Shown here: positions 5,963-24,600 of the stretch, in pieces
How positions within the stretch are numbered: position 1 is the first letter of the stretch
How the letters are laid out: the number at the start of each line of letters is the position of its first letter
NCBI GenBank assembly: GCA_000165425.1
Contig: CT868066.1
Location: forward strand, 1 to 64,000
Source: Paramecium tetraurelia
Lineage: Eukaryota
DNA length: 64,000 nucleotides
Reading direction: 5' to 3'
Made by a program: the position numbers and the translations under genes
Notes under the pieces: generated by a model
What the model saw: the letters and a program-made list of their open reading frames with translations, nothing else
What the model was told of the DNA's origin: nothing
The model's database searches: none

Positions 5963-6930
5963 TCAAATAAAATTGAAATGAACTGCTGAACACAGAAAAT
6001 CAAGGGTCGAATGGGTCAGCTTCATATTTAATTAATGCATGTATTCAACTCAAGTAAAAAGATTGAGACAATAAAAAATAAGAAAGATTATTATAGAATT
6101 CTTTAGATTATTTCAATGTTCGATAATGTAAAAAATTGGTAATTATAATATTTAATCTTCATTTTTGCCTTATAGCACAATTAAATAGGAATTTTTGCCC
6201 CTTGCAAAGTGGGCGGAGAACAAATCAAGATTTAGATTATTAGTTAAATTTGATTTCCTAGTAAATATAAATAAATAATAATTTTTGATGAGATTTAGAA
6301 TAAATGGTGAAAAAAAAATTGATTGGGAAGTTATATTAAAAAAGTATTTGATTTTGTGAATATGGGATTATATTGATTTGATTAAATTAAAGTAGTAAAA
6401 TGGAGATGGGAGTATGGGAGTGAGAGGGGATATATTTGAGAGGGTTTAAGATAGTAAAAAGGTTATTGTATGNNNNNNNNNNNNNNNNNNNNNNNNNNNN
6501 NNNNNNNNNNNNNNNNNNNNNNNNNNNNNNNNNNNNNNNNNNNNNNNNNNNNNNNNNNNNNNNNNNNNNNNNNNNNNNNNNNNNNNNNNNNNNNNNNNNN
6601 NNNNNNNNNNNNNNNNNNNNNNAGGTGTAAATATAACTAAATCATAATTTTTGATGAGATTTCGCATCACTTGGTGACCCAAAAATTGATTGGAAGTTCT
6701 CTTACCAAAGTTTTTGATTTTGTGCCTCTGGGCTTCTATTGCTTTGCTAACCTTCAAGTCGTCCACTGGAGCTGGAAGTATGGGAGTGAGAAAATCTCTC
6801 TTTGCAAGAATTTCAAATCGAACCAAGGTTCTTGTCTGAAGGCATGTTAAGATTTGATAGTATATCATAAGCGATTGAATATCCTATCCTGAAACATCCA
6901 TTCCTAAGAATCTCTAGAACTTTATATTAT
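5963..6930 (-). CDS. Hypothetical protein spanning the (probably false) assembly gap; 5' end not resolved
   Basis: Frame ...KRDFLTPILPAPVDDLKVSKAIEAQRHKIKNF...NYDLVIF continues as TRKSNLTNNLNLDLFSAHFARGKNSYLIVLQGK... once the duplicated flanks are merged. Confidence 0.35.
6473..6622. other. Assembly gap (150 N)
   Basis: Run of N; flanks 6261-6472 and 6627-6838 are two versions of the same sequence. Confidence 0.95.
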
Positions 6931-14388: not shown

Positions 14389-17086
14389 TCAACCCTTTCC
14401 AGCAAAAGAGGTCATGTTTGCTAATGTAGATTGTAGGATTCTCAATTTTCTTTAGCTTGCAACCATGTCAGTTTCTAAAATTCCATGTTTGACCATTTTC
14501 TTTGCCTAATACAATTGCAATTAATTCAAAGTTCGAAATGTTGTAAACTTTTAATTGACTTCCATATTCATTGATTATAATTAACATCCTAAATGTTATT
14601 TCCATATAGCAATCATTGGAGTGCTATTGTCACCCAAACCTAATTGATCCAAAATTTTCATTAAAGCTGCTCTTCCTTTTTAGATTGCTTAAAAATATGG
14701 ATTATTTGAGTCTAATCCAACTTCTTATTTTGCAAAATCTAAATCACATCTTCTAGCCATCAAAGCATACATATAAAGCATATATTTCATATGAGGATGA
14801 TTGTTATAATAATAAGTTGCAATTTTGTTGATTAATTCTTCTGGAACTCTATCCCAATAAGCTAATTCCGGATGAGTAAAGGAGCATCTGTCACTATTAC
14901 AATAAGCTTGGACAATGGCTCTCTGACTTTTAATACTTTCAAAGGGACGAGCAATCTCTCTACTTCCTGCAAAATTGAAAGATTCCACCATTGTTTTGAC
15001 AACTTAATTTTTCACATATAATTCATTGTACTCTTTACTCTTTTGCATCGCTCTTTAAGGAACTCCAATTACATTATCTACCTCAACTAAATAACATACC
15101 TAATTCAAACAAAAAGTCCATGTATTCATAAGAAGGTTCAAAGTCATCACTATAATTAATGTTCGATAAGCCATTTAACAAAAATGTGAATGCTACATCC
15201 TCACTGGCAAACTCTGAGGTGAAATAATGACCTTAGATTGTTCTTATATGTCGTTTTCGTTGTGCTCTGGTTAACGCTTAATATTTAGTATGGATCAATG
15301 TGTATGGTCCACCTCCTCTTTCTGGAGTTATGCCCTATCCCATATAAATGTACTTTTCTGGATTCCTTTTATATTCTCTCATATTTCTAAGTTCAGTCAA
15401 GATCAAACCATCTCTTTGTCGCGTGTCACTGCTGGCAATCATAGTTATTTTAGAATCTGTATTGTTTGTTGAAGAGAAGGTTTCCAACAAAGGTACTATT
15501 TCTACATTCTAAACCTTATACAAATTGATTAGATCATTCACTAAGTCATATTGCGATTAGGTTTGGAAATTGGCAATAATAACCATATCTGCTGCTTGTC
15601 CATTTGCATTTAAAAGTGAGATTTCTTTGAATATATTTTTGATCATTGGCTTGATTTTGTTAATCTTAAGCTTATATCAATATTTAATACATCTGTCAAA
15701 TCCTCACCAGCTAATCTAATTTGTCCCAATACTCCTGTTAATCTGAAAATAGAATATAGTTTCTTTAACTTTAAGGCTATAAAATAGTCCTTAGAATCAT
15801 CATTCTTTGCCAGAATATGATCTAGAATTTAATTAATTTAATCTTCTATTTTTTTGATATTAAAAATTGGCATTTGTTAATAGAACTCTTCTAACGAAAT
15901 CTCCTTTTTGACTCTAAACTTATCACTTAAATCTCTTAAGCTTTTACTATACTCTAAAGCTTATTAATATAATTCCAAAATTTTTCTAAAATCCTCATTC
16001 TCCTCTAATTTTGCTTCAGAAATATATTCCTTATATTATTATATAGTCAAATCAATTGTCAACCCATGTGTATAAGTCATAATACCAATTTCCTAATGAA
16101 TAGAAATCAATGTCTACCATTCCTGGATGATTGTCAAAATCAAATGTCAACCAAGTACCTGGAGTCTCAAAATATTCTTCAGGGTTCTACAATCCTAGTT
16201 CATAAGCTTGAGCTACAGCCTTAATAAGATTGGGTAAATATTAAGTATGATAGATTAGAGATTCTTCTATGTACGATACTTTCTATAATTTATTAAGACA
16301 GAAAATTACATTAAAAATTCGTTATTTGTTTGATTAAATAAATAACTTGGCAGCGTACTTTAGATATTTGTAATCATTTTATTCGATCCCTTAGAGCATT
16401 CTACTAATAGCAATCAACTAGGTCAACGAATTTGGTTATGTTGGATGAGAAGTAAATACATACTTGACTCGATTGATTTTAGACTAAAAACATTTATAAT
16501 TAAAATTATATTTGTACTTTATCTCGTTGATTAAAATACTCGATAATTCTGAATTAATCCAGATATTCATATCGAGCGTAATGGCTGCTCAATCTATCAA
16601 ATATCATTAAGCTATAGATATGCCACAACAATTGTTCTGGCAAATCCTTTTCTTCACAACTCAAGGCCTCCATGTCTTTCCCTTAATAAGTATTATCAAA
16701 GTAGATGGACAAGGCATCTTGGAATAATTAGGTTTCTTCATGAGTCAAATTATCAACGTAGGCATCTAATAGCTATAACATAGTCTTCTTTTTTCTGGGA
16801 TTTATGTGTCGGAAATAATTATTTCCTAAATCCATGAGTCTAATTGGAGATTGTTCAAGGAGAGGTTCTTCTTATATGAACTTTTGAATCTCGATGATGG
16901 AGCACCTTTTATCACTAATATATATTGAAAATTTGATTACTCAGCATTAGCAGCAATCCAAAGCATGTCATTCTCTCTTAACTACTTTTCTTTGACGTTC
17001 TCAGACAAGAAATACTTTGGCAAGTATTTTGAAGTCTAGTTTAGATGAGTTGCTCTTCTAAGGTGGGAAGTAATCGATCGTATCAT
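14389..17086 (-). CDS. Divergent phosphoenolpyruvate carboxylase (bacterial/plant-type fold), ~845 aa, 6 introns, mitochondrial-type N-terminus
   Basis: Motifs in canonical PEPC order: VFTSHPTQ (VLTAHPT), GTWLTFDFDNHP (SWMGGDRDGNP), IFRLTGVLGQIRLAGE (FGL..LDIRQES), IVPLLET (VPLFET), MIASSDTRQRDG (MIGYSDSAKDAG), YMGQGITPERGGGP (FHGRGGSIGRGGAP), RTIQG (RVTEQG), AGSRE (GSRP), QRAIV (LRAIP), C-terminal ...FAGKG*. Confidence 0.85.
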
Positions 17087-18671
17087 ATTATTTAAATTAA
17101 ATATAATTCTTTCTGGAATATTGAAATATTTCTACTGATAATGTATTTGGATTGCTAATTCTAGAAAATGCATAGAATCAGCATTTTAACAACAATCCAT
17201 TGTGAATTTTATTTCAATTTGCTTATCTTGCCTATATTTTTTATATATATTAGCTAGAAGTGAATGGAAAATTATATATATTCAATTTACAATGATAACC
17301 TCTTAATCGCATAATAAATCAGATCAACATTTTAGCGTTGCCTTGTCTATGGGATGAAAGTTGCAATAAATTGAGTAATTGTAATTTAAATTTATTTTAA
17401 AAATTATTTTTAACTCATATTATAAACAATAATAATTAGATTTTATTTTTAATTATAATTATAAAATGTGGCAATTTATTATTTTTCAAATCATTCATTA
17501 ATTAATACTTATACATTTATTTCATAAATTATGAATAAGATTGGACGATAATTTTTTTGAACCAATTATGATTAGACTATTAGATTTTGTTTTATGTAAC
17601 TCAACATAATTCTAATGATAAATAAGACTAATTAATAGTCTTAAAGCTAAAGCACAACAAAAGAGTGTTAAGGATAGATATCATAAAATATATATTTTAT
17701 TCAATCTTCTATATACTTAAGCACATTACTAATTTTAAATTTATAATCGACAAAAAAACGAAGGATATATAACATTATGAAAAAAAATAAGTATTTCTAT
17801 CTTGATTATGCTAATATTGTGTTATTAGTCTGGATTCTATGAGCATTTGGTGATTTTCATAGAGCAATCACACACTTTTGATTCTATCATCATTTGAAAT
17901 TCTTTATACAGTTTAAAATACAAAAGTATTTGTATTTAATTATATGTTTTTGAGGCACTTTGAATAATAATATGTTTCCAGTTAACTTTATTTATGTTAG
18001 TCGTTTATGTGGCTGATTTTCTGACTTCTGGGGAATTCTACATCATTTGTTACTTTAATTTTACTATTAAAGTAGTTGCTAAATTAAATTGGCACCGGAC
18101 CGTAAAATTAATTGAAAAAATTTTATATTAAATAAAAATAAACATGATAATATTTTCATTCTTACCTATAATTTAATTAAATTATAAGTAACAAGCAATC
18201 CAAAGAATAATTACGACTATTTATAAGTTAGCAATAGTTGTTTAAGTAATTTTGACTTAATTCACATAGAACGATAAATAATTAATAATTATGCTGTTTG
18301 TTTTATTTGGCGTTGTAATCCAAATTATCATAAATGGTATAAAAGCCTTTCATCTTTGATTATAACAACCACTTATGTGTTAATTTCTTCATTTCATTAA
18401 TACTACTTTATATTACCTATTCAAGTTGGAGGAGTCAGTTGAATTTTTATTTTATCCTTCTTGTTTTGGAAATATTTGTTTTTATACTTTAAACGCGCGT
18501 ATGATAAAGATTTCATATTTAATTTTATCATCACAAAATAATGAATTTAAAATAATTAAATATCCCATATGTATATATAAAACACAATATTAAGAGTGAG
18601 CTCTTTATGTTCACCTTTTAATGGAGCTATTGTTAAGTTTTTATTTAATTAAAAGAAATTAATAATTGTTA

Positions 18672-21600
18672 ATGATTAAGAAGGGAAGTTTCATGTTGTT
18701 TGAACAGTCAGTATTTTCGATACTTTTTTTATTGACCACAGGTTGTCCTTTTCTTGATTATGAGTCATCCTTGTTAAGTAGCACAGGCCCTATAGAAGAA
18801 ACCATTATAGAGGGCATGGGGTCATCTTAAAGTTTTGCTTTTTGGAGTTTTAGTATTCCAATGTGGGAAGTAAAGAAGTACCCTTAGGTTGAAGAAAAGT
18901 TGTATGTTGATAATAGAAATGAATAATTGTTATTTCTATTGAAATCACTTGATGATGAGAGGGTCATAATGTTTATGCATCTTGCATTTTCAGATTTCAT
19001 GCCTTTGGTATCGCATAGACTATATGTAGAGGAGGAGATTGATAGTAGTAATGTCTTTGATTATGATTATTTCTCATCTTAATATGAAGGAAAGTGGAGC
19101 CTAACCATAATAACAATATAATAGAAAAGTGTGATCGTGGAAACGAATGCAATGTCAACTCATTCGATACCCGATCTGTCTCAAGAATTGAATAATGTAA
19201 AATTCATAATAGGAGGAACTGGGATTGTAATTGTTATTGAATAGATTTTAGATCAATTCCTCTCATTAGCTGGGGATTTTTAGAGGAAGATTATCAAAAT
19301 TAATACAGTTTACAGATTATTCAGCAGGAAGCTTTGTATTTATTAGAGAGAATTGTGCAATTCCCCCTAGTGTAGTTGGGAAATAGATTGTAAGTTTGAT
19401 ACCGGGGCTAAAGAACTTTGAAGGGGACACGTAGTTGAACTTCGAAGTGAATGAAGTGGGATAGAAGTTTTACATTTCAGGTTGGATAAAATTGGATCCA
19501 TCAGAAGCGAGTTTTATTACAACATATATGGTTCTTCGATTAACAACGTTTAAGTTATATTCTGACGAATTGAGATTGGGAGATGAAATACTGAAAATCA
19601 CAGTAGATTTAGATCTTGCTGAACCAGCCAATAGTGGTTACAATATAATATCTCATCATTATTCTATGCCTGTTTAAGGGGCAGTGAATCCTGATTTTAT
19701 AGGTAGGAAGAGATTAGATGATCCATCCAGTACTAATTTTTAATCCCAATTGACTAAATGGCATTTCATTGTATTTCAGCATGGATTGTCAGATTTATAT
19801 TAGTCACAGATGAAACTAAATTTTCAATAAGGACAAACATATCAATTGAATGTGATATTTTTTGACGATTTTTAAGCACAAGGATTATTTATAAATACAA
19901 AATACTACTTCATATTTGGAGGTGATTTAACCGTATTCAGAAAATTACGTGGACAAATGCAAAACTTCCAATTCTGTTACAATTACGAGGTGGATGAAGA
20001 TATCTAATTTTGTATGTTTATAATACTAATTATAAAGAATGTCATCCTACATGTTTCAATTGTGTTGGCCCATTAGCGTCTAATTGTTTGGGATGTTAAG
20101 ATGGTTTAAATAGGAGATGGTCAGAAGATCTACAGACTTGTTTTTGCACTTATGGTTACATAGAGATCGAAGGCACTTGTTATTCATTTAATGATTTATA
20201 TCCAACACTATAGTTTGATGAAATGCCTATGGATTAGACAAACTCTATTTGTCCATTCGGTTATTTCTATTTGGAAGTCAATAAAGAATGCATAAGATGG
20301 TAATTTCTTTTTTCTTATGTAGTCCTCAAACAACTTCCACTGATTTGTTGTGTGTTGATTGTTTATTTGATCCCACCACTTGGCCTTTATTTCCGGTTTG
20401 TAAAACAGACTATGTGACTTAGAAGATAAGTGTTTCAGAAGATGCATATAGAAAGCATCGAAGATCAAATACGGATAACGACGTATATTTTATAGATTAG
20501 AATTTCAATTTAAAATTAATTGAAGGTGCATCTGATTATTGTAATACAGATGACGAATTGCCAAATTGTTTTGAATTCGGACAAATGAGACATCTATCAA
20601 ATAAAGTTTATCTAATTTGTAAAGAGAATCATTACTTCTCGAATAATCATTGTATATTGTTAGATGTTAACTGTAAACGAACAGAATACAAGGAACCCAA
20701 ATGTTTGGAGTGTATGTAAGGATATTACCTACTAAATGATAAATGCGAGTAATGTTCATTGAGATGCACATCTTGTAATTCACTTAGTTGTTTATCTTGT
20801 CCATCTGGATACGAAGCAGTTGGTACTACATGTTTGAGTTGCGGCAATTACTGTTCTACTTGCATTCTCTAATTGAATTTGTATACTCTCGAGCCTTATA
20901 TGAAATGTTTAAAGTGTGTAGATGATTAGAAATACTTCCAATCTTTGAATGGAGTGGATTGTATGAAAAATACAATACCGAATTGCTTGTATGCATTCCA
21001 AGTAGCTGCTGAACATGATAGATTGACTACCTTGGATCATTCATTTACACCCTACACAGGATTAATTATTACTAAGTGTGCAAAGTGTAAGGAACCTTAC
21101 TCATTCGATGAATAGACTCTACTTTGTGTTATGAGATCGTAGAGTTCATGTTCCTACAATTATCGTCTGTCTAGTAGTGATAATGATATCTGTCTTTTTG
21201 GACCTAGAACTTCGGATATAGATCCTGTATCCTTCACTACTGGATGTATTGGACTTAATCAAAATTGTTATACCTGCATAAAAGGTCAAGTGAATACAAA
21301 AGTATCGTATCTATGTTTGATTTGTAACAATGGGTATTATTCAGAAAAGATGACTGGACAATGTCAACCATGTCCTATCAATCTTCATTGCTTATCCTGT
21401 TATCAACAAAATATGAAATCTAAAGATAATTGGAAAACTGACATACGAGCTTACTATAGACAAGCAATAGATGATAATTTACAATCACATTCTTTTATCG
21501 ATTATGGCACATCTTAAAATATTGAAGATTATGAAGTTGCCTGTAAATTTTGTTAATCAGGTTATGAACTTTACAATAATCTATGCATTAAAGCTTGTCC

Positions 21601-24600
21601 TGACTCTTGTGTACAATGTATCAAGATTAACAATGAAAACATATGTGTTAAATGTCCAGATTTCATTGATGGTAGATTCTTGAGTCTTCATGATAATGAA
21701 TGTATTCAATGTCCAATTAGTTGCTCATTATGTCGCCAAAGAGATCAAGATGAAATAATGGCCATAAATCCTCTCTTTAACAATGCAAATTTCAAATATT
21801 CATCTAATCAATGTCTAAAACAATTTCATGGTTACTTTGATTAACAATTAGGCATCTTTGTCAATTGTGAACATGCTGAATGCATAAGGAAATTATAGAT
21901 CAATTTAAATTTGTACTGTTCTAGTTCCGATTACAACGATGCTCTAAATTAATTGCTAACAGAAACTGAAATCAAAATATTCAAATAATCTAATATCCTA
22001 ATCAATGATCTGTTTTCTCCAAACAGTTTTTAATAGGTATTTATCAACCATATCATAGTTTGAAACAGATGAATTCTATAAATAAGCCAATGAAAAAGTC
22101 ATCAAAACCATTCTCATTAAAATTGTCAGTAACATACATTAAACTTGTACAATCAATAACACCAAGAATGTTAGACAAATCTTCAGCTAGAATATTTTCT
22201 CTGCCATGTAACTATTATATTGTATTTAGAAATGTGGAACTTGAAATTCATGGCAATAGCATTACAACATTTAAATTCGATAAGGTGATATCATTCATCA
22301 ATTTCAAAAGAGTTTATCTTTCAAAGATTACAATGACTCCATTTGAAATCAGTAACTAAAAATCATTAATCTTTGTGAGTTCTTTCACTTAACAAATCTA
22401 ATTAAGTGATCTAATATATACTGGAGATGCATCTAATCAGAAACAATAAATAATTATCAAGAATTCAAATGATGTAGTAATTGAAAATCTTAAATTATCT
22501 AACATCGATATTAACAATGTAGAAGCCTTTATTACAATTGATCAAATACCTTAAATCTAAAATGTTAGAATATCTAATATAGAATGTGTTTCAAGTTAAG
22601 CCTAGAATCTGATTCTGCTACTTTTAAATTTGAAGGAGACTGATTCTGTAGAGATATCCAATGTCAAAATTACTTCCAAATTTACCTAAGCATCATTTTT
22701 AAAATAAGTATCTGGAAATTTGATCATCAATAACATCCAAATAGACGATAGTCAAATATCAAGCATCAATAGTCTTTTTAATTTTGGAACACTACTTCAG
22801 GTTGAAATCATTCAATTTTCAATTCTAAATTCTATTATAATTAACTCGACACTCTTGTATTTGAATGGATAATCCTCCTTGAATAGTGTAGTATTTGAGA
22901 ATAATGAATTATCTATTGAGTCAGTTGGAATAACTAATAAAAATGTTGAAGTCACATTATATACATTTTAAGATGTTTCATTTAAATTAAATAAATACGA
23001 CTAAAGTTCTTGCTTAGTTAAAATCAAGGAAAGTTTTAGTCCGAATAAAGTAATAAGGATCAGTCAATTAAGTTTAATTGCCAACACATTAACTACAATT
23101 CCAAGTTTACAGTTTTTGGAATAACAATTAACAACTCTGTTCTATCTGTAAATATAGAATGTGAGTATCACTGACTTGTCAATAGAAAGAGCCTATGGCA
23201 TAAGAGACATTACATTTGTAGATGTAATATTCTTAAATCTAAATCAAATCAAAATTCAATAACATAAACAACATGTCTTCAAAGGTCTTCATCAATATGT
23301 GGATTGTTTCACAAGATCTATCTAAAGTCAGTACTACATTACATCACTCTATTTATATGATGTATCTCAAATAGTCATCCATCAATTGACAATAGATATG
23401 GCTGAGTCCATCAACTATCCAATCATCAACATATAGAGTTCTATTGCTGTCTCCTCATCCTCGAAATCGTTACACATTGAAGAAATCACGTTTACGAATA
23501 ACTTGGTAATCATAATTAACAAGATGAAATCAACTTCGATTTTTCAAATGAGTTCTGAATAAGAATACCAAATTACCATTCTCAATTCATTTATGAAATA
23601 TAACTTAATGCATCAATATGAGTAAAATGATCGAATTTATTCAGGACTGATCTTCAATTTCGATTGTCCTTACTGTACAATTAAAATAACCAATCTCTTA
23701 GTCGAAGATAATCTTGTTACAAATACAACCGATAATGTGATATCACTAAAAGCCAAGTCCATCTCAATTCGATAATCAAAGTTCTTTCAGAATTCAATCT
23801 TCTAGTATTCTATCATATAACCATATCTATTATGGGGATTCCATAAAAATGAAGACATCTTTGTTGAACAAATAAAATAAGTATTCCCAATCAGAGTTAT
23901 AACTGGAAATATGAAATTAATAGGTTAAAATATTTAAATAGAAAATCTAAATATTACTAATTCATCTGGATCAGGCCTTTACATAAAGTTAGAGAGTGAT
24001 GCAACTTTGTTCATAAAGAACACTATATTCAATCATATTACAACTCACTACATCGATTCTGATGAGAATGGAGGAGCAATATATATTGATTCATCATATG
24101 CTATGAGATCCAATATTCTGCTCTCAAACATTACTGCATCCAATATCCAATGTAGAAACTATGGTGGCTTAGTATTTTTACTAAATGGAGAGAGTTACAT
24201 TTAAATCAACCTAACTAATCTCAACATTGCTGACGTTTATGCCCTCAAAGGATCTATTGTTTATAGTGAATTTTCATCAACCTTTAATTCAATCCAATCA
24301 TTTAAAATTTCAAACTTAGTAATTGCCAACAACCTACAAAATCAACTATTATACTTTCAAAAATTTGAAGTTAATAAGCTTGATTCTTCTGCAATGCAGA
24401 CATTATCTTTTTAAAGGAGTCTGCTAAAGATATCTAATGCTTGGACAATAACCTTGGAGTATCTGTAAATATCTGAATTACATTTCGAGTCACTCGGATT
24501 CTTTGACAATATCAGAAGTGCTCAATTAAAGTAGATTTAGCTAACTCAGTGTCAATTACTTAATTCTTTTATTGTCATCAATACAATCCAAGATAAATCT

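Follow-up and report, generated by a model that had tools for sequence, protein, structure and literature searches.

Introduction

Can a protein that escapes the profiles built for phosphoenolpyruvate carboxylase (PEPC), and that has exchanged several residues of the catalytic loop, still be a PEPC, and of what kind? The question is raised by a gene of Paramecium tetraurelia lying at 14389-17086, minus strand, of the window, i.e. the whole 64,000-nucleotide stretch analysed here (positions 1 to 64,000 of contig CT868066.1, assembly GCA_000165425.1), where 7 exons and 6 introns encode 845 amino acids (aa) in the ciliate code (code 6). The gene product, although very divergent, is a genuine member of the PEPC fold and belongs to a ciliate-wide clade. 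As for its function, residue alignments lead us to favour, with some reserve, an active PEP (phosphoenolpyruvate) carboxylase with a different feedback control as the best reading.

An earlier interpretation of this locus, made without database searches and referred to below as the sequence-only reading, had proposed a divergent, probably mitochondrial PEPC with a rewired active-site loop, forming a class of its own in ciliates. The divergence, the rewired loop, the change at the position of Lys546 (E. coli numbering, used throughout for canonical residues) and the change of the C-terminal tail all stand; the novelty of the class does not.

Fold and profile evidence

The ciliate family assembled around the window protein comprises 36 relatives, 54-98% identical over exon 6, of which 32 were aligned, leaving aside the fragments P0007, P0013 and P0036 as well as P0003, the gene model of which is plainly broken; family members outside Paramecium are 41-54% identical. 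An AlphaFold2 model was built with this 32-member alignment for P0001, the P. sonneborni orthologue, which is identical to the window protein at 798/845 residues (94.4%) without any gap. Its mean predicted local distance difference test score (pLDDT) is 85.5 and its predicted template modelling score (pTM) 0.85, residues 1-36 having a pLDDT below 50. Searched with Foldseek against the Protein Data Bank (PDB), the model gave 67 matches at E <=0.001, and PEPCs account for all of the 26 rows shown (best match E 3.4e-16; template modelling scores 0.63-0.68; 13-16% identity). Aligned by VIA-align with the E. coli enzyme (1jqn), it reached Z 23.3 with a root mean square deviation of 3.9 A over 703/874 residues at about 13% identity, model residues 86-843 covering chain residues 4-883. 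Scores of Z 21.5-23.3 were reached by 23 PEPC entries, followed by the archaeal-type enzyme 3odm (17.6) and by pyruvate kinases, matched over the barrel only (<=12.3). From this model, the PEPC fold is predicted to span the whole length of the window protein. Besides, a language-model feature look-up in the ESM Atlas returned PF00311 clusters in 30/30 matches (best 0.93). The resemblance to PEPC is not due to chance, since the 36 relatives share exon 6 and the fold they match is that of PEPC.

Sequence homology to canonical PEPC holds through a chain of profile comparisons via bacterial and metagenomic relatives. With hhalign run in local mode, the ciliate alignment matched a distant group of non-ciliate proteins at E 3.4e-56, and this group matched canonical PEPC at E 7.8e-19; by another route, the ciliates matched divergent bacterial PEPC-like open reading frames (ORFs) at E 2.9e-8, and these matched canonical PEPC at E 6.9e-46. 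The direct comparison of ciliates with canonical PEPC is weak (probability 18-24%, P about 1e-3, i.e. 8.4e-4) and colinear over 711 columns, window residues 69-834 lying on E. coli residues 34-872.

The assignment has to face the near silence of conventional profiles. The window protein, searched as its public counterpart P0256, has no match to PF00311 (PEPcase) or PF14010 (PEPcase_2) even at E 10, and only 2 of the 32 aligned members match PF00311 at E <=1 (best 3.4e-5; the gathering score of this family is 22.4 bits). Neither profile matched any of seven full-length relatives or the six frame pieces holding the exons (the exons gave none at E 1), and PF14010 likewise found nothing among the 32 aligned members. 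NCBIfam returned nothing for the ciliate proteins, the distant relative P0070 giving a 17.8-bit PRK00009 match far below the cut-off. Against PDB sequences, hmmsearch with the family profile found no PEPC, and phmmer with exon 6 yielded chance rows, none of them a PEPC. The checks that the sequence-only reading had put forward thus diverge: the search for a Pfam match failed, and the structural comparison of a predicted model came out in its favour (1jqn, Z 23.3), as did the phylogeny described below.

Relatives, phylogeny and degenerate paralogues

When 1.84 billion representatives were searched with a profile, 88 proteins came up at E <=0.001, no canonical PEPC among them; eleven of the 88 were distant proteins of 587-739 aa. 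A further word-index search started from P0070 added 16 relatives. The nearest non-ciliate kin are PEPC-like proteins of 580-740 aa from metagenomes, together with one Caballeronia hypothetical protein, most of them devoid of a Pfam match; the members of this distant group are P0046, P0070-P0072, P0079, P0081, P0086, P0095, P0110, P0116, P0121 and P0267-P0278. The eleven proteins of the profile search display the motifs TFTxHPT, W-G-D-D, R-I-S, IPL-E, AGSD-QR, G-GS-RNG, RT-QG, GSR and RAI. When 13 distant proteins were scanned, 3 weak PF00311 matches and 1 PF14010 match appeared, a single PF00311 match passing the threshold (22.9 vs. 22.4 bits). The N-termini of P0086 and P0095 carry hydrophobic stretches resembling signal peptides. 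In a search for related loci, the distant-group alignment offered no conserved stretch, and the Caballeronia-type protein gave 22 pattern matches, none of which was confirmed.

For comparison, PEPC-like ORFs were collected from Pseudomonadota, 19 of them canonical and 7 divergent; PF00311 was matched in 26 of the 61 genomes searched. The seven divergent ORFs (loci among L100-L108 and L111) are 949-1077 aa long and reach no more than 35-109 bits against PF00311; four of the seven end in GALG, HAFG or GAFG and three in other ways. Three otherwise canonical PEPCs of the same set of loci end in G[A/S/W]TG where RNTG would be expected.

A quick maximum-likelihood tree was built from 51 rows, with no plant or archaeal rows and without the truncated P0046. 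Its 14 ciliate rows fall into a single group, supported at 100, and a fully supported branch separates ciliates and the distant group from both canonical and divergent bacterial PEPCs. This grouping of the ciliate rows is what the sequence-only reading had anticipated. Its distinct ciliate PEPC class is therefore sound as a ciliate-wide clade, given the relatives and the tree, and is not new: UniProt names A0CEM0, which is the window protein, phosphoenolpyruvate carboxylase, and likewise its paralogues (A0CA36 and A0BC60 being listed), and PMC4196954 had already put its paralogue CAK67653.1 into a ciliate clade devoid of the C-terminal tetrapeptide.

Catalytic residues have been lost in part of the family. 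Among the 33 family rows, window protein included, on which all residue counts below are based, 7 (P0028, P0029, P0031-P0035) lack several of the equivalents of Arg396, Glu506, Asp543, Arg699 and Arg713; they keep Arg510, GQG, ERGGG, RT-QG, Glu579 and the GKG tail. Since P0031 lies apart from the clade made up of P0029, P0033 and P0035, this loss occurred at least twice. These degenerate paralogues may be dead partner subunits.

Conserved and substituted positions

Residues were placed by hhalign and by a joint MAFFT alignment with E. coli Ppc, and by both the motif order of the window protein is colinear with that of the bacterial enzyme. Starting from the N-terminal side, VFTSHPTQ (16436-16459) provides His194, the counterpart of catalytic His138, a His in 32/33 rows. 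TWLTFDFDNHP (16124-16156) is the counterpart of SWMGGDRDGNP, where Trp283, Asp287 and Asp289 correspond to Trp248, Asp252 and Asp254, all kept, and Arg253 is replaced by Phe. The phosphate-binding arginines are kept as well: Arg420, in GQIRLAGE (15703-15726), for Arg396 in 27/33 rows, Arg656, in AGSRE (14956-14970), for Arg699 in 26/33, and Arg669, in QRAIVQAY (14902-14925), for Arg713 in 27/33. The Arg396 equivalent was placed by the joint MAFFT alignment, where QIR pairs with DIR, as hhalign misplaced this stretch; the segment of Arg420 is a strand (residues 416-422) in the P0001 model. By alignment, the metal ligands correspond to Glu489 (PLLE, within VPLLETF at 15476-15496) for Glu506 in 27/33 rows and to Asp508 (SSD) for Asp543 in 29/33, the latter lying within TMIASSDTRQRDG (15407-15445). 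Arg544, equivalent to Arg587, is present in 33/33 rows. Also kept are Leu487 and Met503 (Leu504 and Met538), as well as Arg569 and Gln572 (Arg609 and Gln613). Trp248, Leu504 and Met538 are what we take to be the hydrophobic PEP pocket of the E. coli enzyme. Altogether, 26/33 rows, including the window protein, retain every core catalytic equivalent tested.

The changes cluster in a few places. The Gly-rich loop FHGRGGxxGRGG is not conserved and reads YMGQGITPERGGG in the window, as part of YMGQGITPERGGGP (15305-15346) where Met536, Gln538 and Arg544 occupy the places of His579, Arg581 and Arg587. Gln511 takes the place of Lys546 in SDTRQRD, adjoined by Arg510, which is invariant in the family, and followed by Arg512. 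Lys620 becomes Glu579 within IRTIQGHYFTSEF (15209-15247), with Glu in 33/33 rows. In QRAIVQAY, Val and Gln replace Pro716 and Trp717 (RAIPW to RAIVQ). The aspartate site of the E. coli enzyme presumably consists of Lys773, Arg832, Asn881 and Arg587; at the place of Lys773 the window protein has a basic pair in MARRCD (14743-14760), and the C-terminal (R/Q)NTG is gone, MRNTG being replaced by F[N/A/T]GKG across the family. The window protein ends in FAGKG (SFAGKG at 14392-14409, then the stop codon). GKG is invariant, preceded by Asn in 23/33 rows and by Ala in the species of the Paramecium aurelia complex.

Most of this map had been drawn by eye in the sequence-only reading. The motifs it listed (SHPT, QIRL, PLLE, SSD, ERGGGP, RAIV, TFDFDNHP, YMGQGI, SDTRQRD and FAGKG) are all found in the translation, in an order colinear with E. 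coli Ppc, its six catalytic equivalents are indeed kept, and it was right about the loss of the RNTG tail. The altered FHGRGG loop and the missing Lys of SDSAKD that it reported can now be resolved to His579 replaced by Met, Arg581 by Gln and Lys546 by Gln; the change from Lys620 to Glu is an addition to its list.

N-terminal extension and subcellular location

Ahead of the conserved core, which begins at about residue 72, the window protein carries an extension of about 70 residues, PEPC structural alignments starting at model residues 69-92. Its N-terminus reads MIRSITSHLRRATHLNQTSKYLPKYFLS, residues 1-36 being encoded at 16979-17086; residues 1-28 hold 5 Arg/Lys and no Asp/Glu, the first acidic residue being Glu29, which agrees with the acid-free N-terminus of the sequence-only reading.

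Two locations are to be weighed. To our knowledge, known PEPCs are cytosolic, and plant PEPCs carry a regulatory N-terminal extension; the window protein may just as well be an ordinary cytosolic anaplerotic PEPC, with an extension serving as a regulatory or disordered tail as in plants. The sequence of the extension is not conserved, which suits this cytosolic reading, and its composition is one often seen in AT-rich ciliate genes. It is less readily reconciled with the fact that a basic, acid-poor character is kept despite free sequence change: in 27 of the 30 members with an extension, where it places 29-233 residues ahead of the fold, the first 30 positions hold 3-9 basic residues and no more than one acidic residue. 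Nor would it by itself account for the helix predicted at residues 2-16 of the P0001 model, within a low-confidence stretch. These same features make a mitochondrial presequence, hence mitochondrial import, a serious possibility that falls somewhat short of being probable, as basic, Ser/Thr/Asn-rich N-termini may equally fit AT-rich ciliate coding sequence. The literature search returned no localisation data for ciliate PEPC, whether from proteomes or from green fluorescent protein (GFP) fusions.

Catalytic activity and regulation

The catalytic core is kept in 26/33 rows at 41-54% identity, so that a working PEP-dependent enzyme, most simply a carboxylase, is the reading we prefer. In such a carboxylase, Mg2+ or Mn2+ bound by Glu489 and Asp508 would polarise PEP, the phosphate of which would be gripped by Arg420, Arg656 and Arg669; bicarbonate attack would give rise to carboxyphosphate and the enolate; His194 would then assist the release of CO2, which the enolate would capture under the Arg544 loop to yield oxaloacetate. 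What differs is the surroundings, where the second basic residue of the loop and its His have gone (Gln538, Met536) and where Gln511, in place of the bicarbonate-site Lys, is flanked by Arg510 and Arg512. On the feedback side, the Lys without which the E. coli enzyme no longer responds to aspartate and malate is replaced by the invariant Glu579, and the aspartate-binding RNTG tail by F[N/A]GKG. Since the fixed swaps lie towards bicarbonate and carboxyphosphate and in the feedback site, altered bicarbonate kinetics and a lost or changed aspartate/malate inhibition would be expected, with classical feedback probably little or none.

We take Flaveria Lys600, Arg450 and Arg767 to correspond to E. 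coli Lys546, Arg396 and Arg713. PMC6363079 counts Flaveria Lys600 among the four residues of the bicarbonate site, and a title cited there declares Arg450 and Arg767 essential. For the E. coli enzyme, His138, His579 and Arg587 matter for activity according to PMC11832675, and the K620S variant is described in PMC6048880 as active and malate-insensitive.

Several of these positions count against a carboxylase of the usual kind. His579 is replaced by Met in the window protein and by Met, Leu or Ala across the family, Arg581 by Gln in 33/33 rows, and the bicarbonate-site Lys546 by Gln in 27/33, Lys persisting in 6/33. Canonical PEPCs keep these three residues, which lie in the bicarbonate/carboxyphosphate site or close to it, and two of the three are replaced throughout the family; carboxylation might suffer, or give way to another PEP reaction. 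The active-site geometry proposed above is derived from sequence alignment, and no published activity for any ciliate family member was found in the literature search.

An enzyme with altered chemistry is accordingly the first alternative to active carboxylation: the PEPC fold would bind PEP and metal and form the enolate, with no classical bicarbonate activation, and would work as a PEP hydrolase or phosphatase, as an oxaloacetate decarboxylase, or as a carboxylase using another electrophile or acceptor. We consider it unlikely, although it is worth keeping in mind. In the E. coli enzyme, mutation of His138 or Arg587 uncouples the hydrolysis of PEP from its carboxylation, showing that a partial reaction is within reach of the fold, and the substitutions listed above are joined by Glu for Lys620 in 33/33 rows. 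Moreover, the SD-x-x-QR and G-x-G-S/Q patterns are common to ciliates and the distant non-ciliate group, and are therefore an old, fixed state rather than drift. Yet the equivalents of the two carboxylation-linked residues, His138 and Arg587, are kept in 32/33 and 33/33 rows, Arg510 and Arg512 beside Gln511 could stand in for the lost charges, and canonical single mutants at positions of the His579, Arg581 and Lys546 type stay partly active.

A bolder proposal, which we hold to be rather improbable, is that of a third PEPC-fold class uniting ciliates with their bacterial and metagenomic kin, overlooked by both Pfam models and defined by a fixed signature (Gln at the position of Arg581, Glu at that of Lys620, Arg at that of Ala545 and, in ciliates, the GKG tail); its PEP reaction would differ from classical carboxylation in mechanism or product, and in ciliates it would be mitochondrial and accompanied by dead partner paralogues. 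Finally, a pseudoenzyme, i.e. a non-catalytic PEPC-like subunit with a regulatory or scaffolding role, is very improbable. In its favour, the 7/33 rows that have lost Arg396, Glu506, Asp543, Arg699 or Arg713 equivalents keep the family invariants (Arg510, GQG, ERGGG, RT-QG, Glu579, GKG), which differ from the classical catalytic set, so that the fold serves some purpose for which catalysis is dispensable. These degenerate copies are separate paralogues, however, and the full set of core catalytic equivalents tested is retained by the window protein and by 25 further rows, which is hard to explain without catalysis.

Gene model and transcription

On the minus strand, six overlapping open pieces merge into one frame of 845 codons once six introns are removed, running from ATG (17086-17084) to TGA (14391-14389); 31 TAA and 8 TAG codons are read as Gln, and the single TGA is the stop. 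The introns measure 26, 34, 27, 25, 26 and 22 nucleotides (nt), all starting with GTA, five ending in TAG and one in AAG. Exon 1 (16941..17086) encodes the basic N-terminal extension and is followed by intron 1 (16915..16940, 26 nt, GTA...TAG), the excision of which leaves the frame open and agrees with orthologues. Exon 2 (16518..16914), supported by translation and orthologue alignment, precedes intron 2 (16484..16517, 34 nt, GTA...TAG). Exon 3 (16310..16483), which includes the catalytic His, and exon 4 (16118..16282), which carries TWLTFDFDNHP, are separated by intron 3 (16283..16309, 27 nt, GTA...TAG), drawn from the translation; intron 4 (16093..16117, 25 nt, GTA...TAG), based on translation and orthologue alignment, leads to exon 5 (15691..16092) with GQIRLAGE. 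Intron 5 (15665..15690, 26 nt) is the one ending in AAG. The catalytic core proper, from VPLLETF to Glu579, is encoded by exon 6 (15100..15664), which intron 6 (15078..15099, 22 nt, GTA...TAG; translation and orthologue alignment) separates from exon 7 (14389..15077), encoding AGSRE, QRAIVQAY, MARRCD and the tail.

All 845 residues of this model match the public P. tetraurelia protein P0256 (CAK69237.1, UniProt A0CEM0), which counts 847 aa owing to a 20-nt version of intron 5 ending at 15671. This shorter version also leaves the frame open and was rejected in favour of the 26-nt one, because P0001 aligns without gaps, 9/11 whole orthologue models of the aurelia complex are 845 aa long, and 12 RNA reads agree: they depart from the window at 15663/15664 and resume with exon 5 letters from 15691.

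The PEPC-like gene is transcribed. In two oligo-dT RNA sequencing runs chosen by species label, 52 and 172 reads with at least 95% likeness fall on the gene, covering 19/30 and 27/30 bins. Read cover extends over 14401-17127, with no depth at all at 17128-17300 and hardly any below 14400, and the first mate lies on the plus strand in nearly all reads, which fits a minus-strand transcript in usual stranded libraries. Loose read ends support two splice junctions, that of intron 5 with the 12 reads just mentioned and that of intron 2 with 3 reads (run X23) passing from 16483 into the letters of 16518-16525; the joints table stayed empty for these 58-nt reads, and introns 1, 3, 4 and 6 were not directly seen. 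Two contig runs, also aligned, yielded three short pieces each, uninformative on splicing. With the translation in code 6, the match to P0256 and these reads, the intact gene of about 845 aa with six introns announced by the sequence-only reading is confirmed.

A reservation attaches to the origin of the reads. Most or all of them differ from the window at 8 positions (14572, 14986, 14992, 15650, 15741, 15757, 16063 and 16077), so that their source must be another strain or, for part of the reads, a paralogue. A few reads also show loose ends at 14546, 14582 and 15018, with a short match followed by unlike letters, which misfits the intron model; those at 14546-14582 and 15018 may stem from paralogues.

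The window has 29% G+C and includes an assembly gap, a run of 150 N at 6473-6622. None of the nine neighbouring frames of at least 140 aa located from 10000 to 22063 matches Pfam, so that the neighbourhood is uninformative on the PEPC-like gene; the plus-strand frame at 20222-22063, 613 aa long and without Pfam match, is rich in regularly spaced Cys.

Significance

PEPC is the textbook anaplerotic and C4 enzyme, the catalytic loop and feedback site of which are thought to be near-invariant. The ciliate clade offers a natural experiment in this respect: the metal, PEP and His/Arg core is kept, and the loop Arg, the bicarbonate Lys, the feedback Lys and the tail are swapped, which shows which of the swapped residues PEPC chemistry really needs and could offer feedback-insensitive carboxylases. 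If the enzyme were mitochondrial, ciliates would make oxaloacetate from PEP within the organelle, and models of their central carbon flow would change. The annotation of the gene as a PEPC and the odd tail were already known; the residue map, the proof of the fold, the link to bacterial relatives and the dead paralogues are new. The novelty is thus modest: the clade has been published before, and only its mechanism has not.

Comparison with known PEPC types

The closest precedent is what Chi et al. 2014 (PMC4196954) treated as "ciliate PEPC" in their phylogeny, represented by P. tetraurelia CAK67653.1 and Tetrahymena XP_001021914.1. The former (P0262) is a paralogue of the window protein, 94% identical and in the same 90% cluster; the latter is a putative member of the family of the window protein, and so is a Tetrahymena protein that PMC3521007 lists with other sequences drawn from the PEPC families of Pfam. 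According to PMC4196954, the usual C-terminal tetrapeptide is missing from ciliate PEPCs, which match none of the established types and branch off after those of archaea; its text passages and Table S2 give no residue analysis, structure, location or activity for them. On ciliate PEPC biochemistry or localisation, the literature search yielded only two phylogeny papers and one transcriptome mention, and no paper reporting activity, structure, residue analysis or location of a ciliate member was found, the search bearing on texts other than the supplements of further papers.

With the archaeal-type PEPC (PF14010; Clostridium perfringens 3ODM), the P0001 model shares the TIM-barrel core and the catalytic half (model residues 186-845, 438 residues aligned, Z 17.6), and the archaeal type also lacks the classical tail, as far as the passages of PMC4196954 tell. 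The two differ in length, with about 530 residues in the archaeal type vs. 845 in the ciliate protein, and the structural score is lower than with the bacterial/plant type. The window protein does not belong to the archaeal type, having no PF14010 match and 845 aa where 500-540 would be expected.

Plant bacterial-type PEPC is catalytically active and takes part in Class-2 complexes, where this divergent subunit is paired with a plant-type one; a likeness may be drawn by analogy only, as ciliates carry intact and strongly altered paralogues of a single PEPC-like family side by side. The altered ciliate copies, in contrast, have lost catalytic residues. In plants, Class-2 hetero-octamers show reduced malate inhibition, as stated in PMC13172252.

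It is with the bacterial/plant-type PEPC (PF00311; E. coli 1JQN/1FIY, maize 1JQO, Arabidopsis PPC1) that the comparison is most complete. The differences are a 12-16% identity with no Pfam match, the replacement of GGDRDGNP by TFDFDNHP, of FHGRGG by YMGQGI and of RAIPW by RAIVQ, Gln for Lys546 and Glu for Lys620, a tail in FAGKG vs. (R/Q)NTG, and an added basic N-terminal extension of about 70 residues. The likenesses are the same whole-chain fold (Z 21.5-23.3 over 680-718 residues), chain ends that align and finish with a Gly in both, and the same order of motifs, along which the ciliate protein has equivalents of His138, Trp248, Asp252, Asp254, Arg396, Leu504, Glu506, Met538, Asp543, Arg587, Arg609, Gln613, Arg699 and Arg713.

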